From assembly GCA_016933195.1 (NCBI GenBank), contig JAFGBN010000002.1, positions 11,155-43,154 of the forward strand: a DNA stretch of 32,000 nucleotides, read 5' to 3'. Each line of letters starts with the position of its first letter. Position 1 is the stretch's first letter. Below the pieces are notes generated by a model, which had not been told where the DNA came from, did no database searches, and was given only the letters and a program-made list of their open reading frames with translations. Source of the DNA: Dehalococcoidia bacterium (lineage in GTDB: Bacteria > Chloroflexota > Dehalococcoidia > GIF9 > AB-539-J10). A program made the translations under genes and the position numbers. Shown in pieces: positions 6,170 to 31,993 of the stretch.

Positions 6170-6440
6170 AAATACAATTGAAGGTAGGCCTTGCTGAGAC
6201 GGAAGGCCTTGATTTGCTGTGGAGCGTGTACCAAGCCATGAAATGCTCAATTTTTCTCAAAATGCTTGGTAGAGTTGCTGAATGACCTTAGTGCTGGGGG
6301 TTCGTTGCTGCTGCTCGCTAATATATGTATCAGTCATGCTCCCATCAGGTTTGCCATTTCTTGGCTTAAGGGTGGTTAACCATATCTGTTGCTGACTCAT
6401 TGATGTGGCTCCAGTCTGTTGATTCCGGTCGATACAAAGG
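6170..6440 (-). pseudogene. Possible decayed C-terminal fragment of a DDE (rve/integrase-core) transposase
   Basis: Two abutting minus-strand ORFs (6257..6493 and 5979..6260) are separated by a single in-frame TGA. Read through the stop, they give ...QQQIWLTTLKPRNGKPDGSMTDTYISEQ...KVIQQLYQAF*EKIEHFMAWYTLHSKSRPSVSARPTF. This loosely follows the IS481/IS3-type pattern gI.h..trP..PqtNGkvER...l..f..wYN..RPH.aL.g.tP. There is no N-terminal part and there are no inverted repeats. The match is weak and made by eye only. Confidence 0.3.
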
Positions 6441-6504
6441 TGTAGAATACGCCGATTCCCCCTGAATTCAGGGTGACAATTCAAGAAATTCAAGAGGCGA
6501 TATC

Positions 6505-11225: not shown

Positions 11226-11891
11226 GTGAGGATACTGGAAGAAACAAAGACTGTCTCTCTAACCATTGACGGAAAAGAAATAAAAGCTGCTAAAACTGAG
11301 AAGATACTATGGGCAGCTTTAGATAATGACGTCTATATTCCGAACCTTTGTGCTATTCGAGAAAAGAATGAGCCTTTTGCTTCCTGCCGCCTCTGCTTTG
11401 TGGAAGTGAAAGGCAGGGAAATGCCTGTTACTGCTTGTACTGAGCCAGTGGCAGAGGGCATGGTAGTTAATACTAAAGGGGAAAAGGCCTTAAGGCTAGC
11501 CCGTATTGCTTTCGAGTTGCTCTTAGCTAGTTTGCCTGTAGACTGTGCTCACTGTTCCAAAAGCGGTTCTTGTGAGCTTCAGAAGATTGCCAAGCACTTA
11601 CGTGCAAAGCTCAGCACAAAGAGATTCAGGAAAACTCTGCGTGGCTTACCAATAGATTCCAGCAGCCCTCTATTTATCTATGATCCTAATAAGTGTGTAC
11701 TCTGTGGCAGATGTGTTTGGGTATGCCAGAAAAAACTGAGCATAGCAGCGATTGGTTTTGCCTACCGTGGCTTCCGGCGGATGGTCACCACCTTTGGAGA
11801 TGAGCCCATTGGCCAATCCAGGTGTCAAGGCTGCGGGGAATGTGTTGATGTTTGCCCTGTTGGTGCATTGGTGTTTAAACGGGAGAATTGA
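11226..11891 (+). CDS. NuoG/HydA N-terminal-like Fe-S protein ([2Fe-2S] plus 2x[4Fe-4S], no catalytic domain)
   Basis: 221 aa. It contains a plant-type 2Fe-2S pattern (C-x11-C-x2-C-x13-C, NLCAIREKNEPFASCRLCFVEV...TAC). It also has a degenerate N5-like motif, LPVDCAHCSKSGSCELQ, in which the usual His (HPxDC) is Leu. Two ferredoxin motifs follow: CVLCGRCVWVC and CQGCGECVDVCP. Confidence 0.75.
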   Translation: MRILEETKTVSLTIDGKEIKAAKTEKILWAALDNDVYIPNLCAIREKNEPFASCRLCFVEVKGREMPVTACTEPVAEGMVVNTKGEKALRLARIAFELLLASLPVDCAHCSKSGSCELQKIAKHLRAKLSTKRFRKTLRGLPIDSSSPLFIYDPNKCVLCGRCVWVCQKKLSIAAIGFAYRGFRRMVTTFGDEPIGQSRCQGCGECVDVCPVGALVFKREN

Positions 11892-16089: not shown

Positions 16090-16123
16090 TGAAGAAGATG
16101 AATAGGCTAAAAGGAGGGAAAAA

Positions 16124-16675
16124 ATGAGCGCAGTAATACCACGACATAGGGTAAATGTCTTAACCGGAATCAAATCAGCCAAGCTAATCGAAGACCCGAC
16201 GGAGTACTCTAATTTGATTCGAAAGGCAAAAAGACCGCTTCTCGTAGTTGGGCCTCTCTTGCTTGAATCGACGCCCGACGGCAAGTTGCTCCTCGAGTAT
16301 GCCTTAGACATTGCCAAGCCTAGCAATATCCCCATATGTGCCACAGCGCAAACTAAAGGGAAGGTGGGAGAGCTAGGAGTCAAGCCAGATTCTGTTTATG
16401 ATGTCGTGGAGATAACGAATGCTCTTAAAGACCCCGACTGGAATGGAGTTAGAAGAGAAGGTAATCATGACCTGGTGATCCTTTTTGGCATAAGGAGCGA
16501 CCTTGGGAACCAAAGCCTTTCCACACTCAAGCACTTCGCCCCTCACCTGAAAACTATGACATTGTGTAAGCATTACTTCCCTCATGCCAATTACTCCCTT
16601 ACCAATTTCAAAAAAGATGCTAAGTGGTTGGAGTTTCTGGAAAGCTTAATAGAGAACTTGAAGAAAGGAGGATAG
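16124..16675 (+). CDS. cdhB: ACDS epsilon subunit
   Basis: 183 aa, directly downstream of cdhA, with the size and position of CdhB. The sequence reads ...RPLLVVGP...ICATAQTKG.... Confidence 0.75.
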   Translation: MSAVIPRHRVNVLTGIKSAKLIEDPTEYSNLIRKAKRPLLVVGPLLLESTPDGKLLLEYALDIAKPSNIPICATAQTKGKVGELGVKPDSVYDVVEITNALKDPDWNGVRREGNHDLVILFGIRSDLGNQSLSTLKHFAPHLKTMTLCKHYFPHANYSLTNFKKDAKWLEFLESLIENLKKGG

Positions 16676-16680
16676 AAAAA

Positions 16681-17928
16681 GTGGAAGGCGAATTTCACGC
16701 AGATATTGGACCCCAATATGAAGGTGAGGTGATAAGGAAGGAAGATCTTTACCTGGAGTTTGGTGGCCCTAAGGTAGCATATAAATTTGAGCTGGCGACG
16801 GTGAAGAGCCTCGATGAAGTAGAGAATGAGAAAATAGAGATTATCGGTCCCGATATAAATGAATTGGAAGCTTACGATGAAGAAAAGAAGGGTGGGAGTT
16901 ACCCTATAGCTATTCTGGTTGATGTTGCTGGAGGGGAACTGGACAAGGATGCCGAGGCGATCATTGAGAGAAGGATTCACATGTTTACTAACATGGTTGA
17001 GGGTTGGTATCACATGAATCAGAGGCAAGATTGCTGGTTGAGGATAAACAAGGATTGTTATAAGAAAGGCTTCACTTCCTTAAAGGAATTGGGGGAAATT
17101 TATAGCTTGCTATATACTTCAGAGATGTCAATAATTGAGAAAATCCAAATCACTATTATCACTGATGAGGGAAAAATAAAGGAACTTCTGCCGCACGCTC
17201 TGGAGGTTTATGCTGCCAGGGATGAAAGGGCAAGGACTCTAAGGGATGAAGACGTGGATACATTTTATGGCTGCGTCCTTTGTCAGAGTTTCGCTCCTAC
17301 CCATGTCTCCATTATAAGCCCGGATAGGATTGCCAATTGTGGAGCCATAAACTGGTTTGATGGCAGAGCTGCAGCCAAGATCGACCCTGAAGGACCTATA
17401 TTTGCTATACCAAAAGGGGAGCTTATAGACCCCATAAAGGGTGAATACACGGGAGCGAATAAAGTTGAATTTGAGAAGTCCCTGGGGACTTACGACAGGG
17501 TTTATCTCTATAGCGCCTTCGATCATCCCCATACTTCATGCGGCTGTTTCGAGGCTATAGTTTTCTATATTCCTGAGGTAGATGGATTTGGACTCGTGCA
17601 CAGGGATTTCAAGGGTGAGACTGTAATTGGAGAGACCTTTTCTCATATGGCTGGTGAAACATCTGGTGGAAAGCAAATAGAAGGCCGCCTGGGAACTGGA
17701 CTAGAGCAATTAAGGTCTCCCAAGTTCATTCAGGCGGATGGGGGACGGAGAAGAATGGTGTGGATGCCCAAAGACATAAAAGAGAGATATAAAGAAGCCT
17801 TTGAAGCAGATGGGGTATATGACAAAATTCCCACAGAAGAAGACGTAAAAAATACCGATGAGCTTCTGGAATTTCTTGATAAGGTAGGACACCCCTGGAT
17901 AATGGGGGAAGTGGAGCTTCCTGGGTGA
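16681..17928 (+). CDS. cdhC: ACDS beta subunit: acetyl-CoA synthase (A-cluster), short archaeal form
   Basis: The A-cluster Cys-Gly-Cys is present (HTSCGCFEA), as are the [4Fe-4S] cysteines (CVLCQSFAPTHVSIISPDRIANCGA). I prefer GTG at 16681, which has AGGAGG 8 nt upstream and lies 5 nt after the cdhB stop, over the ORF-track start at 16624 inside cdhB. The 415-aa product lacks the N-terminal domain of bacterial AcsB. Confidence 0.9.
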   Translation: MEGEFHADIGPQYEGEVIRKEDLYLEFGGPKVAYKFELATVKSLDEVENEKIEIIGPDINELEAYDEEKKGGSYPIAILVDVAGGELDKDAEAIIERRIHMFTNMVEGWYHMNQRQDCWLRINKDCYKKGFTSLKELGEIYSLLYTSEMSIIEKIQITIITDEGKIKELLPHALEVYAARDERARTLRDEDVDTFYGCVLCQSFAPTHVSIISPDRIANCGAINWFDGRAAAKIDPEGPIFAIPKGELIDPIKGEYTGANKVEFEKSLGTYDRVYLYSAFDHPHTSCGCFEAIVFYIPEVDGFGLVHRDFKGETVIGETFSHMAGETSGGKQIEGRLGTGLEQLRSPKFIQADGGRRRMVWMPKDIKERYKEAFEADGVYDKIPTEEDVKNTDELLEFLDKVGHPWIMGEVELPG

Positions 17929-19404: not shown

Positions 19405-19917
19405 TTGATAGGCACAAAGGAGTCAGAGCAATTAGCTAAGACCTTATCATCATACAGTAAAGAAAGGAAAAGCTTAGTTCCTTTATTGCAGGAAGTTCAG
19501 GCGAAACTGGGGTATCTTGCCACGGAAGCGATGCGAGAGATTGCTAGTTTCTTGGCCATCCCGGAAATTGAAGTCTATGGAGTCGCTACCTTCTATAACC
19601 AATTTCGGTTCGTTCCCTTGGGAAAGCACCATGTCAGAGTTTGCATGGGCACTGCGTGTCATTTTGCAGGAGGGAAGCTTATTCTGGAAGCTTTAGAAAG
19701 GGAACTTAGCATCAAGGTAGGAGAAACTAGGGGGGATGGGGAATTCAGCTTAGAACGAGTCGCTTGTGTTGGTTGCTGCATGCTAGCTCCGGTAATGATA
19801 ATAGGAGATGAGATTCATCCTAAAATGACGCCTTTCAAAGTGGAGGAAGACTTAATACCTTACAAGCAAGAATCTCAAAAAGAGAGCTCAGGCGAAGAGC
19901 AAGCTGGGGAGCATTAG
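19405..19917 (+). CDS. NuoE/HydC-like thioredoxin-fold [2Fe-2S] protein
   Basis: 170 aa with VATFYNQF...VRVCMGTACH...ACVGCCMLAP, which supplies the four 2Fe-2S cysteines. TTG start 3 nt after the cdhE stop. Confidence 0.8.
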   Translation: MIGTKESEQLAKTLSSYSKERKSLVPLLQEVQAKLGYLATEAMREIASFLAIPEIEVYGVATFYNQFRFVPLGKHHVRVCMGTACHFAGGKLILEALERELSIKVGETRGDGEFSLERVACVGCCMLAPVMIIGDEIHPKMTPFKVEEDLIPYKQESQKESSGEEQAGEH

Positions 19918-19930
19918 GAAAGCATAGTGA

Positions 19931-21850
19931 ATGACGTTTCAGGAAATCCAGAACCAAGCAAAATCCGAATGGGAAACTCTGCAAAATAACACTTATATCC
20001 TCATTGGCACAGCCACTTGTGGTAAAGCAGCTGGTGCCTTAGCTACTCTTGAAGCTTTGGGAAAAGAGCTGTCACGGCAGAGTGCCGATGCTAAAATTAT
20101 TCAGGTTGGCTGCATGGGGCTGTGTTATGCCGAGCCCTTAGTTACTATATCAAAACCCGATTCTTTCCGTGTGGTGTACCATAACGTAACCCCGGAGCTT
20201 GTCCCTCGTCTTATAGAAGGCTATATTATGGGCGATGATCCTTGCCTTGAACTTGCCTTGGGCACTTTGGAAGGGGGTGGGGATGAAGCTCCCTATATCC
20301 CGGAACTACCCAGATTTGAACGTGAACTTCGTCTTGTATTGCGCCGTTGTGGCTACATCGACCCGGCGAATGTAAACCATTACATCGCTAATGGTGGATA
20401 TAGCAGCTTGGGAAGGGCGCTGAAGATGCAACCTGAGGAGATAATTGAAAAGGTAAAAAATTCAGGATTGCGCGGGAGAGGTGGAGCTGGATTTCCCACT
20501 GGACAGAAGTGGGAGTTTTGCCACAAGGCTGAAGGAGAGCCGAAATACGTGGTATGTAATGCTGATGAGGGGGATCCGGGTGCATTTATGGACCGAGTTG
20601 TTTTGGAAAGTGACCCTCAGCAAGTTATAGAGGGGATGATTATTGGTGGTTATGCTGTGAATGCCAGACAAGGATATATTTATGTCCGTGCTGAATATCC
20701 TTTAGCCATCGAATGCCTGGAGATTGCCTTAAAGCAAGCAGAGGGACTAGGTCTTTTAGGGGATAATATCTTGAGCAGCGGTTTTAATTTTCATATAGGG
20801 CTAGCCATGGGGGCTGGTGCTTTCGTCTCCGGTGAGGAGACGGCACTAATGGAGGCTGTGGAAGGAGAGATGAGTACACCCAAGCCAAGACCGCCTTATC
20901 CTGCTGAAGCTGGATTGTGGGGCAAACCCACCCTGCTAAATAATGTGAAAACTTTTGCCAATATCCCATTGATAATCGAGCGGGGCGCAGATTGGTTTTC
21001 CTCCACGGGGACTGAGGGAAGCAAAGGGACAGCGGTGTTTACTCTGGCAGGCAAGGTTAACAACGCTGGACTTGCCGAAGTGCCTATGGGCACAACACTG
21101 CGTGAGCTCCTTTATGACATTGCTGGCGGGATTCCTAAAGATAAGTCATTTAAAGCGGTACAGATAGGGGGCCCCTCGGGAGGCTGTCTCCCCGAGAGTT
21201 TACTTGACACGCCTCTTGACTATGACTCTCTCAGGGAGGCTGGTTCGATGTTGGGCTCAGGAGGCATGATTGTCATGGATGAGGATAGCTGCATGGTTGA
21301 TGCTGCTCGCTTCTTCCTCGATTTTACCACAAAGGAATCTTGTGGCAAGTGTACTCCATGTCGGCTAGGAACATTGCAGATGCTTCATATCCTGGAAGAT
21401 ATTACAACGGGTAAGGCTGAAGCCAAAGACCTCGATCTCCTGATTGAGCTAGCCGAAGGTGTAAAAGCAGGGTCGCTTTGCGCCTTGGGGGGAACAGCCC
21501 CAAATCCTGTTCTCACTACCATGAGGTACTTCCGCGATGAATATGAAGCTCACATCTTGCAAAAGCGCTGCCCAGCGAAGGTCTGCCCTGAACTCACCGC
21601 CTATTATATCCTTCCTGATAAGTGTGAGAGAAGCTGTGAGCATTGCTTGCTCACTTGCCCTACCGAGGCTGTTAAAGGCGAAAAAGGAGAGATAAAGTTT
21701 ATCGATCAAGAGAAATGTGTTAATTGCGGCACTTGCATGGATGTTTGTCCTCCCGAGTATGATGCAGTGATAAAGCTATCACCTATTACCCAACTTCCTC
21801 CAGAAGACCTAGCAGCTAAGGAACGATGTATAGCGCAACAGGTGACATGA
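19931..21850 (+). CDS. NuoF/HydB-like NAD(P)H-binding flavoprotein with extra Fe-S domains
   Basis: 639 aa. It has an N-terminal Trx-like 2Fe-2S domain (TATCGKAAG...VGCMGLCYAEP). The FMN/NADH site reads GLRGRGGAGFPTGQKW and the N3 cluster reads ESCGKCTPCR. A C-terminal 2x[4Fe-4S] domain is present (CERSCEHCLLTCP, CVNCGTCMDVCP). Confidence 0.85.
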   Translation: MTFQEIQNQAKSEWETLQNNTYILIGTATCGKAAGALATLEALGKELSRQSADAKIIQVGCMGLCYAEPLVTISKPDSFRVVYHNVTPELVPRLIEGYIMGDDPCLELALGTLEGGGDEAPYIPELPRFERELRLVLRRCGYIDPANVNHYIANGGYSSLGRALKMQPEEIIEKVKNSGLRGRGGAGFPTGQKWEFCHKAEGEPKYVVCNADEGDPGAFMDRVVLESDPQQVIEGMIIGGYAVNARQGYIYVRAEYPLAIECLEIALKQAEGLGLLGDNILSSGFNFHIGLAMGAGAFVSGEETALMEAVEGEMSTPKPRPPYPAEAGLWGKPTLLNNVKTFANIPLIIERGADWFSSTGTEGSKGTAVFTLAGKVNNAGLAEVPMGTTLRELLYDIAGGIPKDKSFKAVQIGGPSGGCLPESLLDTPLDYDSLREAGSMLGSGGMIVMDEDSCMVDAARFFLDFTTKESCGKCTPCRLGTLQMLHILEDITTGKAEAKDLDLLIELAEGVKAGSLCALGGTAPNPVLTTMRYFRDEYEAHILQKRCPAKVCPELTAYYILPDKCERSCEHCLLTCPTEAVKGEKGEIKFIDQEKCVNCGTCMDVCPPEYDAVIKLSPITQLPPEDLAAKERCIAQQVT

Positions 21851-23878: not shown

Positions 23879-24610
23879 ATGAATGCACAAACACAAAAAC
23901 CTTTTGAGGAGATCTTAGGATATCTCGAGGGTAAAAAGAAGATAGTTCTTATGGGCTGTGGAGGATGCGCTACAGTTTTTCATACAGGGGGTATAAAAGA
24001 AGTAGATGAAATGGCAGAGAAGCTAACGAAGGGGGGGAAGGAGATCATAGGCAAAATTGGACTGCCCTTCGCAGTCTTTACTTGCTATCTTCCTATGTCT
24101 TCGATGCTCTTGAGAGAACACAAGAAGGAGATAGAAGAGTGCGATGCCATGTTAATGCAGAGTTGTGGCGATGGCTTACAAGCAGTTCGGGGGTATTTGG
24201 AGGAGGAAATGGGGATCGTAAAGCCTATCTACCCATCAAACGATGCCCTCGGATTTTCTAGCGGTGGCCCTGCTGTGTTTAAGGAGGAATGCCAGGCGTG
24301 CGGGGAATGCGAGATTGGAAAGACTTTTGGTATTTGTCCCTTTGTGCAGTGCCCTAAGGGCTTGCTCAATGGGCCGTGTGGTGGTACGACTGAAGATGGC
24401 AAGTGCGAAGTAGACCCTACGCGCGACTGTGCCTGGGCTGTGATTTATAAAAGAGCAGAGGAACTTAATCAGGTTGATAAGCTTCTGGGGATAGTGGAGC
24501 CGCACCACTGGAGCAAAGCGGTAAGGCCACGTAAGTTAGAGGTTGAACCTATCGATCTTATGGAGGAACTGAAAGGAACAAAGAAAGTTATAGAAGGATT
24601 GGGAGTGTGA
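23879..24610 (+). CDS. metV: MetV-type protein (MTHFR C-terminal-domain, Cys-rich Fe-S/zinc-ribbon subunit), copy 1
   Basis: 243 aa with CQACGECEIGKTFGICPFVQCPKGLLNGPCGG..GKCEVDP..CAW, the hallmark CPK.L.NGPCGG motif of the MTHFR_C/MetV family. The N-terminus QKPFEEILGYL is shared with copy 2. Confidence 0.75.
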   Translation: MNAQTQKPFEEILGYLEGKKKIVLMGCGGCATVFHTGGIKEVDEMAEKLTKGGKEIIGKIGLPFAVFTCYLPMSSMLLREHKKEIEECDAMLMQSCGDGLQAVRGYLEEEMGIVKPIYPSNDALGFSSGGPAVFKEECQACGECEIGKTFGICPFVQCPKGLLNGPCGGTTEDGKCEVDPTRDCAWAVIYKRAEELNQVDKLLGIVEPHHWSKAVRPRKLEVEPIDLMEELKGTKKVIEGLGV

Positions 24611-24647
24611 TGTAGCTCCCTTTTGCCAGAACGCCAATTAGGCAGTA

Positions 24648-24739
24648 AAATCGGGAAAGGACGCAAAAGTGGAGGCATGAGCAAACTGAGTGAAGCATTA
24701 CAATCCCACAAGTTTGTGGTCACGGGTGAAGTCGGCCCG
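24648..24739 (+). repeat. Left copy of a 92-nt direct repeat (metF 5'UTR plus first 21 codons)
   Basis: Hand alignment to 28537-28628 gives 83/92 identical bases and no gaps. Five mismatches are in the 29-nt leader and four in the 63-nt coding part (three synonymous, one His/Gln). Confidence 0.9.
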
Positions 24740-24757
24740 CATCAAGGATCTTATTAA
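24677..24757 (+). pseudogene. metF: Truncated metF: the first 21 codons fused out of frame to foreign sequence
   Basis: MSKLSEALQSHKFVVTGEVGP matches the start of intact MetF at 28566 (MSKLSEALQSQKFVVTGEVGP). It then reads HQGSY* and terminates at 24755-24757. Confidence 0.85.
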
Positions 24758-25021
24758 GGAATTAAGAACAAGGGTTGGGAAAATTAGCCTTGTAGTTAAC
24801 AGGGTGAACGGTAAGCTTCCCTCAGAAATAGGAAAGGCGATTGATGATTTTGGGCTTTCACTCATCACTACAATCCCTGAAGACCCCTATGTTGCTGATT
24901 TGGAGATAAAAAGGAACACCGCTTGTGGCTCTCCCTCAGGATTCTTCCCTTCAGCAAAGGATGAAGGAGATAGCAAGCAAGATAAGTTGCTTAAGGAAGG
25001 AGTGCAATGAACAAAAATGTT
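24738..25021 (+). pseudogene. 3' remnant (about 94 codons) of a fourth cooC-like ATPase gene, also frameshifted
   Basis: RIKDLIKELRTRVGKISLVVNRVNGKLPSEIGKAIDDFGLSLITTIPEDPYVADLEIK aligns with the C-terminal third of the three CooC-like proteins. After the A5 run at 24908-24912 the homologous sequence continues in the +1 frame (GTPLVALPQDSSLQQRMKEIASKI..., compare LEGKSLLGLPQDSPA in the paralogues) and ends at 25021. There is no Walker A or CxC region. The ORF-track entry 24690..25010 is a read-through chimera. Confidence 0.8.
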
Positions 25022-25882
25022 GACGAATACCCCGTAATCTGGCTCCAAGGTGCCGGTTGTACCGGCTGCTCTGTATCAGTTTTAAACTCCGTTAGCCCGA
25101 CGATAAAGAATGTTCTTATTGATGAAGTTATTCCTGGAAAGCATGTGAATCTCAGGTTTCACCCCACGATAATGGCTGGGGCAGGCGAGCTGGCGATAGA
25201 AGTACTCAGGGATACACAGGAGCATCGAAAAGGAGAGTATATCCTTATCGTTGAAGGTGCAGTTCCCACGGCCGAAGATGGAGTTTATGCAGTTGTGGGG
25301 GAGGAAGATGGGAAGCCGGTAACCCTTCTTTCCAGGGTTCTTTCTTTAGGCGCTAATGCAATGGCTGTTATCGCCCTAGGAACTTGTGCTGCCTTTGGTG
25401 GGATTCCTTCTGGATCTCCCAATCCCACCGGATGTCGAGGGGTTATGGATACCTTTGAAACTCATAATATCTCAACCCCAGTGATAAACATTCCGGGCTG
25501 TCCTCCTCATCCTGACTGGTTCGTAGGGACCGTAGCCAGCATTCTTATTGGAGGGCTTCCTGAGCCTGAGGAACTTGATGAATTTGGTAGGCCGAAGCTT
25601 TTCTTTGGCTCACTGATTCACGAGAATTGCCCGCGCCGCGCCTATTACGACGAAAGGAAATTTGCTAAAAAGCTTGGGGAGCCCGGCTGTCTTTATGATC
25701 TAGGATGCAAAGGGTCTGTCACTTATGCTGATTGTCCACTTCGCCTCTGGAATGGAGGGGTGAATTGGTGCATCGGCAACAATTCTCCCTGCATCGGCTG
25801 CTGCGAGCCCGGTTTCCCAGATGTTGTATCCCCCTTCTATGCCAAGATGGAGGAATATCTCCCTCAAGGCGGGGAAAAATAA
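25007..25882 (+). CDS. [NiFe]-hydrogenase small subunit, no Tat signal peptide (cytoplasmic)
   Basis: 291 aa. It begins MNKNVDEYPVIWLQGAGCTGCSVS, so the proximal-cluster CxxC lies about 17 aa from Met1 and there is no RRxFxK leader. Further motifs are GTCAAFGG, PGCPPHPD, HENCPRR, CLYDLGCKGSVTYADCP and WCIGNNSPCIGCCEPGFPD (medial and distal clusters). Confidence 0.9.
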   Translation: MNKNVDEYPVIWLQGAGCTGCSVSVLNSVSPTIKNVLIDEVIPGKHVNLRFHPTIMAGAGELAIEVLRDTQEHRKGEYILIVEGAVPTAEDGVYAVVGEEDGKPVTLLSRVLSLGANAMAVIALGTCAAFGGIPSGSPNPTGCRGVMDTFETHNISTPVINIPGCPPHPDWFVGTVASILIGGLPEPEELDEFGRPKLFFGSLIHENCPRRAYYDERKFAKKLGEPGCLYDLGCKGSVTYADCPLRLWNGGVNWCIGNNSPCIGCCEPGFPDVVSPFYAKMEEYLPQGGEK

Positions 25883-25897
25883 GTAAGGAGGAGCAAG

Positions 25898-27454
25898 TTG
25901 GGTCAAATAATTATAGATCCGCTCACTCGAATTGAAGGTCACCTAAAAATTGAGGCCATGGTGGAGTATGGGGTGGTCAAAGAGGCAAGGTCCACAGGGA
26001 CTTTGTTCCGCGGTTTTGAAATTATCCTTCGGGGGCGGGATCCACGTGATGCACAGCGAATAACTCAAAGAATTTGTGGGGTTTGCCCCACAAGTCACTC
26101 CACTGCAGCTGCTCTAAACTTGGATAGTGCCTTTGGAATCGCTGCTAAGATCCCTGGAAATGGGCGAATCCTCCGCAATCTTATTCTTGGAGCAGCCCAT
26201 ATTGCGGATCATATCTTACATTTTTATCACCTTTCTGCTTTGGATTATGTGGATATCGCCGCCCTGGGAAAATATGAGGGAAAAGATCCAACTTTAAATT
26301 CAGTTAAAGATTTCATCACAAGAGGAGAACTTGGCCCCTTTATTACGAGGTACAACGACGATTTTCGCCTTTCCCAGGAAGCTAACGTGGAACTGGCAGC
26401 GCGTTACCTAAAGGCTTTCGAGATGCGCCGTAAGGCGCAGGAAGCGGCAGCGATATTCGGCGGGAAGCTTCCCCACAATATAGGCATTGTTCCCGGAGGG
26501 GTGACGGCTATTGCCACAGTGGATAAGATCGCCTCCTTCCTTTGGAGGTTAAATGAGCTTCGGGATTTTATTGATAATGTTTACCTCCCCGATGTAATTA
26601 AAGTGGCAAAGGCGTATCCTGACTATCTTGAAATTGGTGCAGGATGTAAGAGAACTCTCAGCTACGGAGTGTATGAGCTCGAGACTACGGAGGCTGACCT
26701 AGTAAGGAGGAAAAGGCTTTTCAAAAATGGGCTTGTTTCTGAGAGTTTAGAACTTGAGCCTTTAGACATCTCAAAGATTCGTGAGGAGGTTAGAAACTCT
26801 TGGTATGCTGAGGAGTGCGCTGGAAAGCCAACCGAGGGAAAAACTATCCCCACTCCACACAAGGAAGGTGCCTACTCTTGGATAAAATCACCTCGAAGTG
26901 ATGGCCGGGTCTGTGAAGTTGGATCTCTAGCTCGAGTTCTTGCCACATATGTTGGGGGCGATCCGAGAATGCGAGAACTTGTAGACGGAGCTTTGAAGGT
27001 AATCGGCGTCTCAGCGAAAGCGCTTTTCTCAACTTTGGGCCGGCATCTTGCTCGGGCTTTGGGAGCAAAGTTTATCGCTGATTCTATGCCTGCCTGGCTT
27101 TTAGAGCTTAAGCCAGGAGAGCCAGCATATATTGACTATGAGGTGCCTGAAGAGTCGGAAGGAATGGGCATTACTGAGGCAGCGCGTGGTGCCTTGGGGC
27201 ACTGGATAAAGATAAAGGATAGGAAAATAGCTCTATACCAATGCGTTGTTCCCACAACTTGGAATGCCTCGCCGCGTGATGACCATGAGCAGCCAGGACC
27301 TATTGAGCAGGCTTTAGCTGGGATTAAGATAAAGGATGAAAAGAACCCGGTAGAGATAGGGCGGATTGTACGTTCCTTCGATCCCTGCCTTGCTTGTGCA
27401 GTGCACCTCCTCTCACCAAAGGGAACGGAAATTGGTAGAGTTCAAGTTTGCTAA
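25898..27454 (+). CDS. [NiFe]-hydrogenase large subunit
   Basis: 518 aa, TTG start after TAAGGAGGA. It has RIEGHLKIE, the L1 motif QRICGVCPTSH and the L2 motif DPCLACAVH. The L2 motif is followed by a 15-aa tail (LLSPKGTEIGRVQVC) of the kind removed by the maturation endopeptidase. Confidence 0.92.
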   Translation: MGQIIIDPLTRIEGHLKIEAMVEYGVVKEARSTGTLFRGFEIILRGRDPRDAQRITQRICGVCPTSHSTAAALNLDSAFGIAAKIPGNGRILRNLILGAAHIADHILHFYHLSALDYVDIAALGKYEGKDPTLNSVKDFITRGELGPFITRYNDDFRLSQEANVELAARYLKAFEMRRKAQEAAAIFGGKLPHNIGIVPGGVTAIATVDKIASFLWRLNELRDFIDNVYLPDVIKVAKAYPDYLEIGAGCKRTLSYGVYELETTEADLVRRKRLFKNGLVSESLELEPLDISKIREEVRNSWYAEECAGKPTEGKTIPTPHKEGAYSWIKSPRSDGRVCEVGSLARVLATYVGGDPRMRELVDGALKVIGVSAKALFSTLGRHLARALGAKFIADSMPAWLLELKPGEPAYIDYEVPEESEGMGITEAARGALGHWIKIKDRKIALYQCVVPTTWNASPRDDHEQPGPIEQALAGIKIKDEKNPVEIGRIVRSFDPCLACAVHLLSPKGTEIGRVQVC

Positions 27455-27455
27455 C

Positions 27456-27920
27456 ATGGCTGAGGTTGGCATTGTTGGCGTCGGGAACCTACTCCTCAAA
27501 GATGAGGGAATAGGGGTTCATGTGATTCAGGCCCTTGAAAAGCTAGAAATTGAAGGTGTGAAGCTTATCGACGCCGGAACCTCTCCAGATTTCCCTTTCT
27601 TCGTTCAAGGGCTGAAGAAGCTTGTGGTCATTGATGCTGCCCAGATGGGGGGGCAGCCGGGGGTGGTTTACAAGTTCACTCTCTCTGAGCTTGAACTTGA
27701 ATCTAAAGAAACGTTCTCCCTTCATGAGATAGGGCTTATTGAAAACCTTAAGCTTGCCCAGGCTCTAGGAGGCCCAAGAGAGGTAACGATTATAGGCGTT
27801 GAACCCGCTGAAGTAAACTGGGGGCTTGAGCTCTCACCAATCCTTAGAGAAAAGTTTCCCCAGATTTTAAATCTTGTGTTGGAGGAAGGAAATGCTTTGC
27901 TCAGAACAGAAACCGTTTGA
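27456..27920 (+). CDS. Hydrogenase maturation endopeptidase (HyaD/HybD/HoxM family)
   Basis: MAEVGIVGVGNLLLKDEGIGVHVIQAL... carries the GxGNxxxxDxGxG motif. I place the start at ATG 27456, 1 nt after the large-subunit stop. The ORF-track start at 27366 lies inside the large-subunit gene. Confidence 0.8.
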   Translation: MAEVGIVGVGNLLLKDEGIGVHVIQALEKLEIEGVKLIDAGTSPDFPFFVQGLKKLVVIDAAQMGGQPGVVYKFTLSELELESKETFSLHEIGLIENLKLAQALGGPREVTIIGVEPAEVNWGLELSPILREKFPQILNLVLEEGNALLRTETV

Positions 27921-28536
27921 GGAGATCTTGGGTTATCTTAATGGAGAAAATTCCACCTTTATTGTTGGCTGTAAAGGTTGCGCCGAGGGATGTGAGAGTG
28001 GGGGTGAGCCTCAGGTTAAAGAAATAAAGGATAAATTGGAGAAAGAAGGCAAGAGGGTTAAGGGCTTTACTGTTATTGACATAGTTTGTGATGCCCATCT
28101 CTCCCGTCTAAAACTTGCCGCTCACAAGAAAGCCGTTGATGAAGCCGATTCCATTCTTGTTATGACTTGTGGGGCGGGAATTCAGACTATAGCTGAGCTC
28201 GCTGACAAGATGGTACACCCTGGTTGCAATACCATTTCCTCAGGTGGGGGTCATGCTGAGTGGAAGGAAGCGGAAAGATGTCTCGAGTGCGGCGATTGTA
28301 TACTGGAGTTTACTGGTGGCATCTGTCCCATAGCGAGATGTTCCAAGCATTTGCTTAACGGTCCCTGTGGTGGCTCGCAAGGTGGTAAGTGTGAGGTCGA
28401 TCCAAGCATTCCTTGTGCCTGGCAATTGACTATCGAGAGGCTGACTAAGCTGGGACAACTCGATAAGCTAGGGAAGATCGTGCCTCCAAAAAATTGGAAC
28501 GTAAGTCTTGTTGCAGGGCGACCAGTTAAACGGTAG
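27892..28536 (+). CDS. metV: MetV-type protein, copy 2
   Basis: MLCSEQKPFEEILGYLNG...CLECGDCILEFTGGICPIARCSKHLLNGPCGGSQGGKCEVDPSIPCAW. The start ATG at 27892 follows GGAGGAAGGAA and aligns with the copy-1 N-terminus. It overlaps the protease gene by 29 nt. Confidence 0.75.
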   Translation: MLCSEQKPFEEILGYLNGENSTFIVGCKGCAEGCESGGEPQVKEIKDKLEKEGKRVKGFTVIDIVCDAHLSRLKLAAHKKAVDEADSILVMTCGAGIQTIAELADKMVHPGCNTISSGGGHAEWKEAERCLECGDCILEFTGGICPIARCSKHLLNGPCGGSQGGKCEVDPSIPCAWQLTIERLTKLGQLDKLGKIVPPKNWNVSLVAGRPVKR

Positions 28537-28628
28537 AATTCGGGAAAGAAAGCAAAAGGGGAGACATGAGCAAACTTAGCGAAGCATTACAATCCCAAAA
28601 GTTTGTGGTCACGGGTGAAGTCGGCCCA
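28537..28628 (+). repeat. Right copy of the 92-nt direct repeat (authentic metF leader plus first 21 codons)
   Basis: See 24648-24739. The two copies are 3889 bp apart in the same orientation. Confidence 0.9.
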
Positions 28629-29435
28629 CCTAAAGGCGTGGCCATTCAGGAAATGATAGAGTCATGTGAACTGTACAAAGGGAGAGTTGTAGCAGTCAAT
28701 GTAACTGATCAACAAAGTGCTGTAATGAGATTAGGTTCACTGGCAGTTTGTCACCTTCTGATAGATATGGAAATCGAACCTATTTTTCAAGTAACCTGCC
28801 GTGACCGTAATCGCATTGGCATACAATCAGATTTGCTCAGTGCCTATGTGCTCGGGATTGAGAATATCCTTTGCCTCACCGGCGACTATGTTACTTTAGG
28901 TGACCATCCCCAAGCCAAACCCGTTTTTGACCTTGACTCAGTTTCCTTGCTCCAGGCTGCGGTTCAATTGCAGCAAGGTAGAGACTTGGCAGGAAAGGAG
29001 ATCCAGGGCTTCCCTAAGTTTTTCTTGGGTGCTACAGTTAATCCTGGCGCTAATCCTTTAGAGCCGCAGATTATCAAGATGGAGAAAAAGGTCAAAGCTG
29101 GGGCTCAGTTTTTCCAGACCCAGGCCGTTTATGAGCCCAAGAAATTTGAGGAATTTATGCAAGCGGTGAAACATCTCGGTGTGCCTGTGCTAGCGGGAAT
29201 CATTCTCCTGAAGTCGGCTGGTATGGCTCGTTTTATGAACAAAAATGTTGCTGGAGTCCACGTGCCTGATAATCTCATTGAGGAAATGGAGAAGGCAGAA
29301 AAAAGAGTAGACAAAAGCATTGAAATCGCTGCTCGACTGATTAACGAGCTCAGGGGGCTTTGTCAGGGGGTGCACATCATGCCTATCGGCTGGGAGAAAA
29401 GAGTCCCAGCAGTCTTAGATGTGGCTGAGTTATAG
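28566..29435 (+). CDS. metF: Methylenetetrahydrofolate reductase, acetogen-type small MetF, copy 1
   Basis: 289 aa with ...AVNVTDQQSAVMRLGS...QVTCRDRNRIGIQSDLL...ENILCLTGDY...FFQTQAVYE..., a typical MetF TIM barrel. It follows metV directly. Confidence 0.85.
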   Translation: MSKLSEALQSQKFVVTGEVGPPKGVAIQEMIESCELYKGRVVAVNVTDQQSAVMRLGSLAVCHLLIDMEIEPIFQVTCRDRNRIGIQSDLLSAYVLGIENILCLTGDYVTLGDHPQAKPVFDLDSVSLLQAAVQLQQGRDLAGKEIQGFPKFFLGATVNPGANPLEPQIIKMEKKVKAGAQFFQTQAVYEPKKFEEFMQAVKHLGVPVLAGIILLKSAGMARFMNKNVAGVHVPDNLIEEMEKAEKRVDKSIEIAARLINELRGLCQGVHIMPIGWEKRVPAVLDVAEL

Positions 29436-29489: not shown

Positions 29490-30617
29490 TTGCCTAATAA
29501 AGAAATAATATTACAGGTTCTGAGAGCCTCCAGCATATTTGAAGAGGTCAACGATGAGGCATTATCCAAGATAGCTACTTTTTCCCATGAAGTAAGCTTC
29601 CAGCCCGGGGAAATCATCTTTGCTGAAGGCGATGTTGCCGAGAAGTTGTATATTCTAGTGGAGGGAGAGGTAGGCATCGAGGCTAGGCTATCGACTCGGC
29701 CTGGCTCAGTGAGGCGGGGTACTATTGAAAGTGTCGCCCCCGGTGGAGTCTTCGGTTGGTCAGCCATCCTCGAAACTCACCTTACTATGGGTGCTCGAGC
29801 TATCTCTGCAGCTAAGGCGATTGCTGTTGATGGCCATGCCTTGCATTCTCTCCTTGCGCAAGACACGGAACTGTGCTCACCAGTGATGAGGAAATTGGTA
29901 GATATTGTTTCTCTTCGACTTGCCAACACCAGAATTACGCTGGCACATATTCTCTCAGTTTGCTCCCACGATTTGAAAGCACCTTTAGCTGCTGTGCAGA
30001 GCTATCTTCAGGTCATTCTTGGTGGTTTTGTTGGCGAGCTAAATGAAAAGCAAAGGGAGATGCTCTCCCGAAGCTGCGTCAGAATTGCTGAGTTCATTGA
30101 GATGATTGATAATATTCTGGATATTTCCCGCTTTGAAGTTGGTGCGGTGGAGATGGAGAACTTATCCTTGCCCGAGGTGGTTCGTGATAGCATCGAGATG
30201 CTTCGTCCTCTAGCTGAGGAGAAGAAACTGAATTTTACGCTGGATTTAGCTCAAGATGTGCCCAAAGTTAAAGGCTCAGCGACACGTATCAAGCAGGTAG
30301 TCGCTAACTTAGTAGGGAATGCCATTAAATTCACTCCGTCTCAAGGTGAGATTTCTATTAAGTTAAAGGAGGATGATGGTTACCTCAGGGTAGAAGTGGC
30401 TGATACTGGCGTGGGTATATCTCCTGAGGAGTTGCCCAAGATATTTGATGATTTCTATCGTGGGGTAGCCGGAGGCACCGAAGCTAAAGGAACTGGCTTG
30501 GGGCTTTCCATTAGCAAGAAAATTATCGAGACTCACGGTGGGAGAATTTGGGCAGAAAGCCCTTGCCCTGAGACGGGGAGAGGCAGCAAGTTTGTTTTTG
30601 CCTTGCTCAAGAGCTAG
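29490..30617 (+). CDS. Soluble sensor histidine kinase with an N-terminal cNMP-binding-like (CAP effector) domain
   Basis: 375 aa. The N-terminus resembles a CAP effector domain (FEEVNDEAL...FQPGEIIFAEGDVAEKLYILVEGEV...GGVFGWSAIL). It has the H-box SHDLKAPL, the N-box GNAIKFTP, G1 DTGVGI and G2 GTGLGLS. There are no hydrophobic segments. The start is uncertain: TTG at 29490 is the first plausible start after the in-frame stop at 29472. Confidence 0.8.
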   Translation: MPNKEIILQVLRASSIFEEVNDEALSKIATFSHEVSFQPGEIIFAEGDVAEKLYILVEGEVGIEARLSTRPGSVRRGTIESVAPGGVFGWSAILETHLTMGARAISAAKAIAVDGHALHSLLAQDTELCSPVMRKLVDIVSLRLANTRITLAHILSVCSHDLKAPLAAVQSYLQVILGGFVGELNEKQREMLSRSCVRIAEFIEMIDNILDISRFEVGAVEMENLSLPEVVRDSIEMLRPLAEEKKLNFTLDLAQDVPKVKGSATRIKQVVANLVGNAIKFTPSQGEISIKLKEDDGYLRVEVADTGVGISPEELPKIFDDFYRGVAGGTEAKGTGLGLSISKKIIETHGGRIWAESPCPETGRGSKFVFALLKS

Positions 30618-30644
30618 GCTTAGAATTGAAAGGAATCGAGGACA

Positions 30645-31562
30645 ATGAAAGCAGGAACTAATCTGGAAAAAGTTCTGGAAAGTGGCGCTTTTGCCGTCAC
30701 CGCTGAAGCGGCTCCAGCTAAGGGAGCTGTTAGTAGTGCCATCGAGAGGAAAGGCGAGATGCTCAAGCCTTATTGTGATGCCGTAAATGTCACCGACAAC
30801 CAGTCGGCAGTGGTACGGATGTCGAGCTGGAGCAGTTGCGTTCTCTTGAAACAATTTGGGATTGACCCTGTAATGCAGGTCGTTGTCAGGGACAGGAATC
30901 GGCTGGCTATACAAAGCGATGTCTTAGGAGCGCTAGCTCTGGGAATCCAAAACATCTTATGCTTGTCGGGAGACCATCAATCACTTGGCAACCATCCCGA
31001 GGCTAAAGGGGTCTACGATGTCGATTCCATCCAATTAGTTCAAATGTTAAAGACCATGCGAGATGAAAAGAAGTTCCAATGCGGTGAGGAGATATCAGGC
31101 GAGGTGCCTATCTTTATCGGTGCTGTGGCCAATCCCTTTGCTGCTCCATTTGAGTACCGAGTCTTACGATTAGCCAAGAAGGTGGAAGCTGGGGCTGATT
31201 TCATCCAAACTCAGGCCATTTTCGATATAACCCAGTTTGCTAAATGGATGGAGGCGGTACGGAACCGAGGCTTGGATAAGCAGGTTCGTATCCTTGCCGG
31301 GGTTATTCCTACTAGATCAGTGGGAATGGCTCGCTACATGAGAGACTATGTCTCTGGCGTTTATGTCCCAGATGAAGTTATCACTCGCCTTGAAGGTGCC
31401 AAAAGCACCAAAGAGGAAGGAATCAAGATATGTCTTGAGACAATTGAGCAACTGAAAGACATCCAAGGGGTTCATGGCATTCACATTATGGCTGTTGCCT
31501 GGGAGGAAATTGTTCCTCGCATTGTGGAGGAAGCCGGGCTTCTTCCCAGACCAGCAGTGTAA
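30645..31562 (+). CDS. metF: Methylenetetrahydrofolate reductase, copy 2 (divergent paralogue)
   Basis: 305 aa with AVNVTDNQSAVVRMSS...QVVVRDRNRLAIQSDVL...NILCLSGDH...FIQTQAIFD.... It is collinear with copy 1 but clearly diverged, and no metV lies directly upstream. Confidence 0.85.
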   Translation: MKAGTNLEKVLESGAFAVTAEAAPAKGAVSSAIERKGEMLKPYCDAVNVTDNQSAVVRMSSWSSCVLLKQFGIDPVMQVVVRDRNRLAIQSDVLGALALGIQNILCLSGDHQSLGNHPEAKGVYDVDSIQLVQMLKTMRDEKKFQCGEEISGEVPIFIGAVANPFAAPFEYRVLRLAKKVEAGADFIQTQAIFDITQFAKWMEAVRNRGLDKQVRILAGVIPTRSVGMARYMRDYVSGVYVPDEVITRLEGAKSTKEEGIKICLETIEQLKDIQGVHGIHIMAVAWEEIVPRIVEEAGLLPRPAV

Positions 31563-31585
31563 ATCTGAAGCTAGAAGGAGGCATA

Positions 31586-31993
31586 ATGGCGGAACAGAAG
31601 ACAAAAATCTTAATTGTAGATGATGACCCAGACATTCTAATTGCTATTGGAGCTGTCCTGGAGGCGCGAAACTATCAAGTCGTCACCGCCCGGGATGGGG
31701 AGGAGGGTTTGGCTAAACTCAAGGAAGAAGGAGCCGATTTGATGATTTTAGACCTCTTAATGCCTCGGAAGGATGGCTTTGCCGTTTGCAAGGAATTGAA
31801 AGACCCTCGGTGGTCGAAATATGGCAATATCCCGATATTGATCCTAACTTCGGTAAGGGAAGAGGTCAGCCGAAGGCGCTATCAACTGGAGACTGGCTTA
31901 AGTCTCGATGTTGATGACTATGTTGAAAAGCCCATTGACCCATTTGTGCTGGTTAAGCGAGTGGAAAACCTTCTAAAAAGGGGGAAATCGTAG
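31586..31993 (+). CDS. Single-domain (CheY-like) response regulator
   Basis: 135 aa with ILIVDDDPDI, the phospho-acceptor context DLMILDLLMPRKDG, LILTSV and DDYVEKP. There is no output domain. Confidence 0.85.
   Translation: MAEQKTKILIVDDDPDILIAIGAVLEARNYQVVTARDGEEGLAKLKEEGADLMILDLLMPRKDGFAVCKELKDPRWSKYGNIPILILTSVREEVSRRRYQLETGLSLDVDDYVEKPIDPFVLVKRVENLLKRGKS

Follow-up and report, generated by a model that had tools for sequence, protein, structure and literature searches.

The window considered here, i.e., the whole 32,000-nt stretch that was analyzed, comes from a Dehalococcoidia metagenome-assembled genome (MAG) (assembly GCA_016933195.1, contig JAFGBN010000002.1, positions 11,155 to 43,154). 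It codes for a [NiFe] hydrogenase embedded among genes for the two subunits of a methylene-tetrahydrofolate (THF) reductase, MetV and MetF, with CODH/ACS genes encoded just upstream of this block. The features are as follows (window coordinates):

19405-21850, + strand, nuoE-nuoF-like pair (PF01257; PF01512 with PF10589 and a 2x[4Fe-4S] domain)
23879-24610, + strand, metV1, second MetV paralog, 44% identical to MetV2 (PF12225)
24648-24757, + strand, duplicated metF 5' end, left half of a junction (ribosome-binding region and ~21 codons, premature TAA)
24690-25010, + strand, "scar" ORF of 106 codons
24741-25010, + strand, cooC-type 3' remnant, right half of the junction (no P-loop half, no start codon of its own)
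25007-25882, + strand, hydS, [NiFe]-hydrogenase small subunit (PF01058 and PF14720)
25898-27454, + strand, hydL, [NiFe]-hydrogenase large subunit (PF00374, 511 bits; NF033181, 687 bits, cutoff 600)
27456-27920, + strand, hydrogenase maturation endopeptidase of the HycI/HybD family (PF01750; TIGR00072, 122 bits)
27892-28536, + strand, metV2, of the hydrogenase-linked MetV clade (PF12225)
28566-29435, + strand, metF1, catalytic subunit of methylene-THF reductase (PRK08645, 253 bits; TIGR00676)
29490-30617, + strand, histidine kinase with an N-terminal cNMP-binding domain, between metF1 and metF2 (PF00027, PF00512, PF02518)
30645-31562, + strand, metF2, second MetF paralog (MTHFR models)

The array metV1-scar-hydS-hydL-endopeptidase-metV2-metF thus runs on a single strand in the order reported in the earlier note, and the tight spacing described there was reproduced: 15 nt separate hydS from hydL, the hydL stop lies 1 nt from the protease start, the protease gene and metV2 overlap by 29 nt, and metF1 follows metV2 after 29 nt. 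Since two independent assemblies (L001 and L084) have an identical gene order, scar included, the layout is not an assembly artifact. The claim that no known hydrogenase partner is encoded beside these genes also stood, as no ORF for cytochrome b, HdrABC, or MvhD was found within the window. Among the related loci described below, no cytochrome b, HdrA, MvhD, or other known dedicated partner is conserved beside the hydrogenase, and the neighbors of the block are Wood-Ljungdahl (WL), hyp, and regulatory genes.

Sequence comparisons revealed that the best relatives of both hydrogenase subunits with solved structures are the periplasmic [NiFeSe] Hys enzymes of Desulfovibrio vulgaris and Desulfomicrobium baculatum (E values of 6e-134 for HydL and 1e-88 for HydS). 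HydL is group 1a-like and shares with them the active-site motifs RICGVCPTSH and DPCLACAVH, the latter followed by LLSPKGTEIGRVQVC, as well as a C-terminal extension, here of 15 residues, that is predicted to be cleaved by the endopeptidase; unlike Hys, it has Cys in place of selenocysteine, and its clade sits on a long branch separate from DvH Hys. HydS retains the aligned Cys/His-rich motifs of the D. baculatum small subunit (1CC1_S) and is predicted to carry ligands for three Fe-S clusters; its NWC motif we take to supply the additional Cys found at the medial cluster in [NiFeSe] enzymes, which would make this cluster a [4Fe-4S] one. The NiFeSe small-subunit model matches HydS only from model position 37, indicating that the signal region is missing. 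The alignment to mature 1CC1_S begins at residue 4 of both proteins, and no longer ORF is possible, as no start codon lies between the annotated one and the preceding in-frame stop. HydS therefore lacks a Tat leader, as the earlier note had observed, on which basis we predict that HydSL is cytoplasmic, in contrast to Hys. It further differs from Hys in having no cytochrome c or b partner and in sharing one putative operon with metVF.

To assess conservation, we collected 80 species-level genomes via HydL matches at 59 to 99% identity. A metV gene, counted if within 1.3 kb, lies directly 3' of hydL or its protease gene in 70 of the 71 loci whose sequence extends 1.3 kb or more beyond hydL, with a median hydL-metV gap of 31 nt where no protease gene intervenes; metF is also present after this metV in 63 of the 65 loci scored for it. 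The conserved hydSL-metV-metF synteny that the earlier note had suggested looking for is thus strongly borne out, and searches starting from MetV2 homologs recovered the same block on metagenome contigs. Going by genome labels, the block is found in about 70 genomes of uncultivated anaerobes from at least five phyla, namely, Chloroflexota, Desulfobacterota, Nitrospirota, Actinomycetota, and Bacillota (host groups Dehalococcoidia, Desulfobacterales/Syntrophaceae, Thermodesulfovibrionales/Nitrospira, Actinomycetota/Gaiellales, and Moorellales/Firmicutes). In some of these genomes, metVF sits between hydSL and its maturation genes, the order being hydSL-metVF-protease in L003, L071, L077, and L080 and hydSL-metVF-hycI-hypABFCDE in L085/L086. 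Every metVF-linked HydS is devoid of a Tat leader, and the single unlinked relative (L079) has a HydS with the Tat motif TRRGFLK and no metVF. In the HydL tree, this relative forms a basal branch next to L070, which is linked to metVF but whose contig does not include hydS.

Phylogenetically, MetV2 groups with the hydrogenase-adjacent MetVs, apart from the MetV1 type and most nonadjacent MetVs, and the linked MetVs are separate from the other MetVs of the same genomes. One trio of nonadjacent MetVs falls inside the hydrogenase-adjacent clade. Besides 12 conserved cysteines, MetV2 has Cys112, a residue largely confined to its clade; a structure model of MetV2 yielded no fold match clarifying docking. 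Pairwise-distance correlations are 0.90 for HydS-HydL, 0.82 for HydS-MetV, 0.75 for MetV-MetF, and 0.59 for HydS-MetF, such that MetV tracks both HydS and MetF, as a bridge would. The MetF next to the linked MetV is of the MetF1 type in 36 of 58 loci and of the MetF2 type in 22, and metV1 orthologs (79 to 83% identical) occur between metV2 and metF in L011, L021, L025, L026, L033, and L052. The window has two MetVs and two MetFs, and in relatives the linked MetV is found with either type of MetF, so that more than one subunit composition is conceivable.

On the basis of gene order and sequence, we propose, with a probability of roughly 0.6, that HydS, HydL, MetV2, and MetF form a soluble, cytoplasmic, four-subunit H2:methylene-THF oxidoreductase, in which the hydrogenase would serve as the electron-input module of a MetVF reductase. 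That these proteins associate, that electrons flow in this direction, and that the reaction takes place are all inferences from these data. H2 would be cleaved at the [NiFe] site in HydL, and the electrons would travel through the three HydS Fe-S clusters to the Cys-rich MetV2, which would dock at the distal cluster of HydS in place of the cytochrome c of the periplasmic relatives. From there they would reach the flavin of MetF and reduce methylene-THF to methyl-THF, which would feed the CODH/ACS encoded just upstream. The earlier reading of MetV as the Fe-S adaptor between the hydrogenase and MetF is supported. The couple is favorable (H2 at -414 mV versus methylene-THF at -200 mV; PMC9586279), and a likely rationale is that H2 at the very low levels in sediments is still reducing enough for methylene-THF (E0' of about -200 mV), though no longer for NAD+ or ferredoxin. 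By our own arithmetic, however, nonbifurcating transfer from H2 to methylene-THF dissipates about 41 kJ/mol, an awkward loss for an energy-limited acetogen that counts against the four-subunit reading. If that reading is true, H2 would directly drive the last reduction from CO2 to the methyl group, and HydSL would be a fifth input module for MetVF reductases.

Such an arrangement would be in keeping with the modularity of MetVF, types II to IV of which differ only in the input module (PMC8760232). Type II enzymes (Clostridium ljungdahlii, Eubacterium callanderi, and Thermoanaerobacter kivui) likewise have MetF and a Cys-rich MetV side by side, neither with an NAD(P)H site, but they have no dedicated input module and their physiological donor is disputed (PMC8760232), whereas here a hydrogenase lies directly upstream and MetV belongs to its own clade. 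Type III (Acetobacterium woodii) combines the MetVF core with one genetically linked input subunit set, as here, but it takes electrons from NADH via the flavoprotein RnfC2 (PMC8760232) rather than, as we propose, from H2 via the [NiFe] enzyme HydSL. In type IV (Moorella thermoacetica and Sporomusa ovata, and reported in Chloroflexi too, such as the marine DscP3), the core is joined to a module from hydrogenase/heterodisulfide reductase systems, HdrABC-MvhD, and is thought to bifurcate from NADH; HdrABC and MvhD are missing here, and the hydrogenase catalytic subunits are missing from type IV. The methanogen MvhAGD-HdrABC system offers a parallel in which a cytoplasmic [NiFe] hydrogenase (group 3c) directly feeds, via the small Fe-S adaptor MvhD, the reductase of a terminal exergonic C1 step. 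Its hydrogenase group, adaptor (MetV here), and acceptor enzyme are nevertheless different, HdrA is absent here, and the similarity of HydL to MvhA is confined to the N-terminal ~115 residues. The earlier statement that no described direct pairing of MetFV with a [NiFe] hydrogenase was known needs to be softened, since a group 1a HysAB adjoining MetVF was noted in "Ca. Bipolaricaulia" from Great Salt Lake MAGs and suggested as its electron supplier (FEMS Microbiol Ecol 2024, PMC11287216). That passing mention, to which we liken our locus by description only, is a single sentence about two OTUs that does not address Tat loss, distribution, the MetV clade, or how the operon is built.

Tight synteny can also stem from coregulation of two enzymes sharing a diffusible carrier. 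Under this explanation, which we consider unlikely, no complex exists; the hydrogenase reduces ferredoxin or flavodoxin, an ordinary type II MetVF uses it, and the linkage reflects coregulation in a WL superoperon. Purified type II MetVF does accept reduced ferredoxin in vitro (PMC8760232), and the block usually lies among WL genes (acs, fhs, folD, and DUF3786) that are colocated without forming one complex. The adjacency is nonetheless specifically that of hydL (or the protease gene) followed by metV at ~31 nt and holds where no other WL gene is nearby. The interposition of metVF between hydSL and its own protease/hyp genes and the separate clade of linked MetVs also speak against a shared carrier, and nonbifurcating reduction of ferredoxin by H2 would be uphill at environmental H2. 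Slightly less probable still is a larger bifurcating or confurcating enzyme, a bacterial analog of Mvh-Hdr, in which HydSL-MetVF, alone or with the NuoE/NuoF/short-NuoG-like set as a further partner, would use H2 oxidation together with exergonic methylene-THF reduction to reduce ferredoxin or NAD+. This could be the case given that NuoF is extended by an N-terminal [2Fe-2S] and a C-terminal 2x[4Fe-4S] domain, as bifurcating HydB/Bfu subunits typically are, that a 221-aa protein resembling the NuoG N terminus is encoded at 11226-11891, and that the trio is also found 5' of hydSL-metVF in a Desulfobacterota-like contig, placing the set near the block in two phyla; bifurcation would also remove the energetic waste discussed for MetVF (PMC8760232). 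Yet conservation lends no support to the participation of NuoEF that the earlier note had entertained: nuoEF always directly follows acsC, as it does here and in L081, L083, and L085, is adjacent only in loci with acs genes upstream (~12 of 80), and is missing near most hydSL-metVF loci. Purified MetVF enzymes have shown no bifurcation (PMC8760232), no HdrA-like bifurcating flavoprotein is present, and HydL resembles the large subunit of the bifurcating NiFe-HydABCSL (7t2r_D) weakly and only at the N terminus.

We regard it as improbable that the complex works mainly in reverse, releasing electrons from methyl-THF oxidation as H2 during syntrophic acetate or methyl group oxidation. Several hosts carry the labels Syntrophaceae, Desulfobacterales, or Dehalococcoidia, and some members of these groups run the WL pathway oxidatively, and [NiFe] hydrogenases are in principle reversible. 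Against this, the group 1a relatives are uptake biased, and methyl-THF oxidation at -200 mV would need H2 far below ~0.01 Pa or a large substrate/product ratio (our Nernst estimate is about -266 mV at 1 Pa H2); syntrophic acetate oxidizers are believed to depend on reverse electron transport here. The presence of the cNMP-domain histidine kinase might further suggest an H2-sensing regulatory hydrogenase signaling via this kinase and response regulators to the WL genes, given that kinase homologs and response regulators flank or interrupt the metV-metF unit here and in ~16 related loci and that regulatory hydrogenases are likewise cytoplasmic and without a Tat leader. We consider this very improbable, as the kinase is not nearby in most loci, the invariant neighbor is MetV rather than the kinase, and the hydrogenase is most closely related to catalytic enzymes of group 1a. 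HydL also keeps the C-terminal extension and dedicated endopeptidase that group 2b regulatory enzymes lack.

The scar upstream of hydS is not a degenerate gene but the junction of a metF 5' remnant and a cooC 3' remnant. A direct repeat of 100 nt (24648-24747 versus 28537-28636, 89% identical) carries the metF ribosome-binding region and first ~21 codons. This metF remnant, from the ATG at 24677 to the TAA at 24757, is joined, in a different reading frame, to the final ~90 codons of a cooC-type gene; these share 54% identity with residues 161-237 of an intact CooC of 255 aa, encoded directly upstream of hydS in L081. Intact related cooC genes also occur in L011, L020, L023, L031-L033, L035, L037, L041, and L063. 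The order in the relatives is cooC-hydS-hydL-protease-metV2-(metV1)-metF, and the window is a rearranged derivative in which metV1 was displaced upstream of the hydrogenase; the earlier description of the hydrogenase as nested inside the metV/metF unit accordingly holds for this lineage but not for its relatives.

The window carries one long Wood-Ljungdahl cluster, with all of its genes on the same strand, in which the genes for the small and large subunits of a [NiFe]-hydrogenase (hydS and hydL) precede those of a MetVF-type methylene-THF reductase (metV2 and metF1). The order of the cluster and the coordinates of the hydrogenase-reductase block are as follows.

Gene order of the Wood-Ljungdahl cluster in the window (all features on the same strand)
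Cluster start, in order: cooC, fhs, gene for a 221-aa NuoG-N-terminal-like ferredoxin, acsE, acsD
Next: archaeal-type cdhA and cdhB, then acsB, acsC, nuoE, nuoF, two more cooC genes
Next: metV1, then the "scar" that separates it from hydS
25007-25882: hydS, followed by a 15-nt gap
25898-27454: hydL
27456 (start): endopeptidase (protease) gene, beginning 1 nt past the hydL stop
27892 (start): metV2, overlapping the protease gene by 29 nt
29 nt after metV2 (start): metF1
Cluster end: cNMP-domain histidine kinase gene, metF2, response regulator gene

The order and spacings in an earlier note made from the sequence alone proved correct in every detail. The layout of the block is reproduced by two independent assemblies (loci L001 and L084), and an independent gene caller gives the same 29-nt protease/metV2 overlap in a related contig (L081). 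Scanning for promoters and terminators revealed no convincing plus-strand terminator in the short gaps between hydS and metF1, a result that is weak either way, with no more sites than in shuffled sequence; an Rfam search found no RNA families in the window.

We scanned one genome per GTDB species with HydL, took the best 80 loci of at least 581 relatives, and searched these by tblastn and blastp for counterparts of the window proteins. Among these best 80 of at least 581 loci, metV lies within 1.3 kb after hydL in 70 of the 71 with at least 1.3 kb of downstream sequence, and metF is also present in 63 of the 65 with at least 2.6 kb; the hydSL-metV-metF synteny that the earlier note had set as a check is thus conserved. 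In the same best 80 of at least 581, the protease gene stands between hydL and metV in 43 loci, follows metF in 4, and is absent nearby in 30, and the median hydL-metV distance is 31 nt where no protease gene intervenes. The hosts of these 80 loci are labeled mostly as Dehalococcoidia/Chloroflexota, with others labeled as Desulfobacteraceae, Desulfobacterales, Syntrophaceae, Thermodesulfovibrionales/Nitrospira, Actinomycetota/Gaiellales, Moorellales, and an uncultured lineage of Firmicutes, these being MAG labels of which some may be wrong. The HydL of the window is itself 100% identical to an NCBI protein labeled as from Dehalococcoidia. No named isolate occurs among the 240 listed HydL relatives or in the best 80 of at least 581 genomes. 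A reverse search from MetV2 homologues recovered metagenome contigs with the order cooC-hydS-hydL-protease-metV-metF-DUF3786. A Desulfobacterota-like contig has the order hydS-hydL-metV-metF-hycI-hypA-hypB-hypF-hypC-hypD-hypE, in which the reductase genes lie between the structural and maturation genes of the hydrogenase.

The L1 and L2 motifs of HydL (RICGVCPTSH and DPCLACAVH) conform to the patterns RxCGxCxxxH and DPCxxCxxH, and the protein scores 687 bits against NF033181 (cut-off 600). Its best PDB matches are Hys large subunits, and both HydL and HydS (E values of 6e-134 and 1e-88) are closest to the [NiFeSe] enzymes of the periplasm of Desulfovibrio vulgaris and Desulfomicrobium baculatum, which are of HydDB group 1a. 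The Cys/His-rich motifs of HydS align in sequence with those of 1CC1_S, NWC included, and are presumably the ligands of proximal, medial, and distal Fe-S clusters; the NWC motif holds the extra Cys that would give a [4Fe-4S] medial cluster. HydL further has a C-terminal extension of 15 residues, consistent with the endopeptidase gene alongside. The motifs and the predicted three-cluster small subunit are shared with the group 1a Hys enzymes, but the Tat leader, the selenocysteine, and the cytochrome partner are not. The Ni ligand is a Cys codon rather than Sec (DPCLACAVH), HydL falls below the HysA-specific cut-off (530 versus 780), and no cytochrome c3 or cytochrome b gene was found in the window or among the recurrent neighbors of the best 80 of at least 581 loci. 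Likeness to group 3 enzymes (Mvh, Frh, Hox, and the bifurcating HydABCSL) is confined to about 115 N-terminal residues of HydL; in the case of the group 3c Mvh/Hdr system, it resembles MvhA over residues 3-117 only (E value of 2.5e-27), and the window has no FlpD/MvhD or HdrA ORF, which argues against membership in the Mvh/Hdr type.

That HydS lacks a Tat leader, as asserted earlier, is confirmed by an upstream stop codon that bounds the ORF, whose start lies 17 residues before the CTGC motif. The match of HydS to the NiFeSe small-subunit model begins only at model position 37, and its alignment with the mature small subunit of D. baculatum starts at residue 4 in both proteins. The N-termini of the metVF-linked HydS proteins contain no twin-arginine motif; the only one (TRRGFLK) occurs in L079, the single locus without metVF. 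In a neighbor-joining tree rooted with DvH Hys, L079 is basal and stands beside L070; the boundary between linked and unlinked forms is not sharp because L070 is metVF linked and its HydS is missing from the contig. Given that the nearest kin belong to group 1a and that the export signal is missing, we therefore regard HydSL as a group 1a-like enzyme that has lost this signal. Among the hydrogenases that are annotated as periplasmic members of "group 1a," there would thus be a large cytoplasmic clade, which automatic classification would misplace in both location and role, affecting metagenome-based metabolic reconstructions. All 72 related HydS proteins have a six-residue insertion, EVIPGK, at residues 40-46 relative to the D. 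baculatum small subunit. We considered it as a marker of the clade and dropped it since the Tat-bearing L079 has it too; it appears to mark a wider lineage rather than the cytoplasmic clade. In L026 (6214-8954), the metVF-linked hydSL is immediately preceded by another hydrogenase set, which is very different (about 26% identity) and has a protease of its own.

On the reductase side, metV2 and metF1 are adjacent, as in other MetVF pairs; the Cys-rich MetV2 matches PF12225 with 112 bits, and metF1 matches MTHFR models. A PDB sequence search with MetV2 returned no match. The hydrogenase-adjacent MetV proteins form one clade, to which neither the MetV1 type nor most second MetV proteins of the same loci belong; a small nonadjacent group (L048, L059, and L064) lies at its base, beside L070. 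Twelve Cys residues are conserved in all MetV types, of which the N-terminal domain contributes four and the PF12225 domain eight, and 85% of the members of the linked clade have an extra Cys at residue 112. Pairwise distances correlate at 0.90 for HydS-HydL, 0.82 for HydS-MetV, 0.75 for MetV-MetF, and 0.59 for HydS-MetF, and the MetF beside the linked MetV is of the MetF1 type in 36 loci and of the MetF2 type in 22. MetV follows both of its neighbors, while the MetF type is exchangeable. The correlations are consistent with a bridging role of MetV, although similar values could arise from co-inheritance alone.

In acetogen bioenergetics, the electron donor that serves MetVF-type reductases in the cell has long been at issue. 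These reductases are modular, and four methylene-THF reductase types are recognized, namely, MetF alone, MetVF, RnfC2-MetVF, and HdrABC-MvhD-MetVF, none of which is hydrogenase linked (PMC8760232); in work on marine Chloroflexi, only the HdrABC-MvhD-MetVF type is described. In the window, RnfC2, HdrABC, and MvhD are absent and the hydrogenase holds the position of the input module. The simplest reading of the conserved block is that hydSL would be a fifth such module: HydSL would oxidize H2 in the cytoplasm, and electrons would pass from the distal cluster of HydS to MetV and on to the flavin of MetF, so that H2 would enter the methyl branch directly. Comparative genomics supports the H2-linked interpretation of the earlier note and, with it, a MetVF reductase with a putative new input module and a predicted cytoplasmic branch of the group 1a hydrogenases, which is widespread and has been noted only in passing. 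The earlier statement that no MetFV associated with a [NiFe]-hydrogenase has been described holds for characterization, full-text literature searches having turned up no biochemical or systematic description of hydSL-metVF, but not for the adjacency itself: a single passing remark in a 2024 MAG study records that two OTUs of "Ca. Bipolaricaulia" have a group 1a HysAB adjoining MetVF, as a possible source of electrons for the reduction of MTHF (PMC11287216).

With E0' values of -414 mV for H2 and -200 mV for methylene-THF (PMC9586279), the reaction would yield about -41 kJ/mol by simple arithmetic, and a Nernst estimate places the H2 couple near -266 mV at about 1 Pa H2. At such a pressure, H2 should remain able to reduce methylene-THF, though hardly NAD+ or ferredoxin, a difference that would account for the prevalence of the block in sediment lineages. 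Its hosts are abundant, uncultivated subsurface and sediment lineages, foremost the Dehalococcoidia, for which H2 use and operation of the Wood-Ljungdahl pathway have been deduced from genomes only.

Other roles can be conceived, all of which we rank below direct transfer through MetV. Operation of the system in reverse has to be set against the potentials of the two couples, and a diffusible carrier connecting the enzymes in the absence of a complex against the single clade of adjacent MetV proteins. If the hydrogenase served in H2 sensing, its natural counterparts would be the regulatory hydrogenases of group 2b, whose large subunits have no C-terminal extension and no endopeptidase and which are coupled to kinases; HydL differs in its extension and adjacent protease gene, and most of the loci have no kinase.

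A bifurcating supercomplex likewise ranks lower. HydSL-MetVF would then be an H2-driven electron-bifurcating methylene-THF reductase, perhaps joined by the second MetV or by the NuoEF-like proteins, in which the exergonic reduction of methylene-THF would pull the H2-dependent reduction of ferredoxin. If true, this would be a bacterial counterpart of Mvh-Hdr without Hdr and would resolve the problem of energetic "waste" by MetVF in a large uncultivated Wood-Ljungdahl group. The window does encode NuoE, NuoF, and the 221-aa NuoG-N-terminal-like protein. However, HydL is only weakly similar to 7t2r_D of the Bfu-type NiFe-HydABCSL, the nuoE-nuoF pair always follows acsC, and it lies beside hydSL only where acs genes adjoin (about a dozen of the best 80 of at least 581 loci, plus contigs L081, L083, and L085). 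The NuoEF-like module suggested earlier as a partner of the hydrogenase thus travels with the acs genes, and its partnership is not borne out by conservation. We consider a bifurcating enzyme improbable, even if recurrence of the set in two phyla, together with the short NuoG-like protein, would be compatible with a larger complex. This set of NuoE, a long NuoF, and a short NuoG-N-terminal-like protein constitutes a Bfu-like diaphorase module within the CODH/ACS cluster, directly after acsC (window 11226-11891 and 19405-21850; L085 3109-6356), and is found in Dehalococcoidia and in a Desulfobacterota-like contig.

The segment that separates metV1 from hydS bears on how the block in the window arose. 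A 100-nt direct repeat (24648-24747 versus 28537-28636, 89% identical) holds the ribosome-binding region and about the first 21 codons of metF; the duplicated metF frame runs from an ATG at 24677 to a TAA at 24757. In the scar (24648-25010), this piece runs out of frame into the 3' third of a cooC-type gene, a segment that shares 54% identity with residues 161-237 of an intact CooC (255 aa) encoded directly upstream of hydS in close relatives. The metV1 orthologues of relatives follow metV2, in the order hydSL-protease-metV2-metV1-metF (L011, L021, L025, L026, L033, and L052). By its sequence, the scar is evidently a recombination junction, and the repeat, the cooC remnant, and the place of metV1 in relatives together indicate that the window is a rearranged derivative, the scar recording the event by which metV1 came to lie upstream of the hydrogenase. 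Exactly this junction would arise if the block had been duplicated in tandem and had then undergone deletions, a course that explains it better than a cassette dropped into a metV-metF pair. The picture of a hydrogenase cassette inserted into a metV/metF unit has to be abandoned, both metV genes being downstream of the hydrogenase in relatives.

Several further features recur around these loci. A DUF3786 protein (about 218 aa) is encoded directly after metF in 16 related loci, including L011, L021, L023, L032, L033, L081 (9643-10299), and L083; in L085, its gene precedes hydS, and in the window it is absent, with the kinase in its place. Encoded between metF1 and metF2, that cNMP-binding histidine kinase precedes one or two receiver-only response regulators (window 29490-31993), an arrangement also seen in L084 (10663-11540); in L027, L046, and L062, the kinase gene separates metV from metF. 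A two-component system flanking metF has been reported before in marine Chloroflexi. Formate-related genes occur downstream of metF in L021, L032, L033, L052, and L063 and in L011, L023, L028, L037, L040, and L041, either as a second nuoE-nuoF pair with a formate-dehydrogenase-like gene of about 900 aa or as a fusion of about 1350 aa combining NuoG-like, GltD-like, and molybdopterin FdhA parts; in the first five, the distance from metF is about 3-9 kb. Such an arrangement points to a formate step encoded within the same supercluster.

The CODH/ACS of the window (13774-17928) is of the archaeal type, with a 771-aa CdhA and a CdhB epsilon subunit (PF02552), and occurs together with a bacterial AcsE methyltransferase. 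In addition to the cooC remnant, three intact cooC paralogues are present in the cluster (8571, 21826, and 23056). Upstream of the cluster, the region 2012-8115 encodes an HpaB/4-hydroxybutyryl-CoA-dehydratase-family protein, a short-chain dehydrogenase, a metallo-beta-lactamase-fold protein, and an AMP-forming acyl-CoA synthetase, which together may constitute an acyl-CoA metabolism module.
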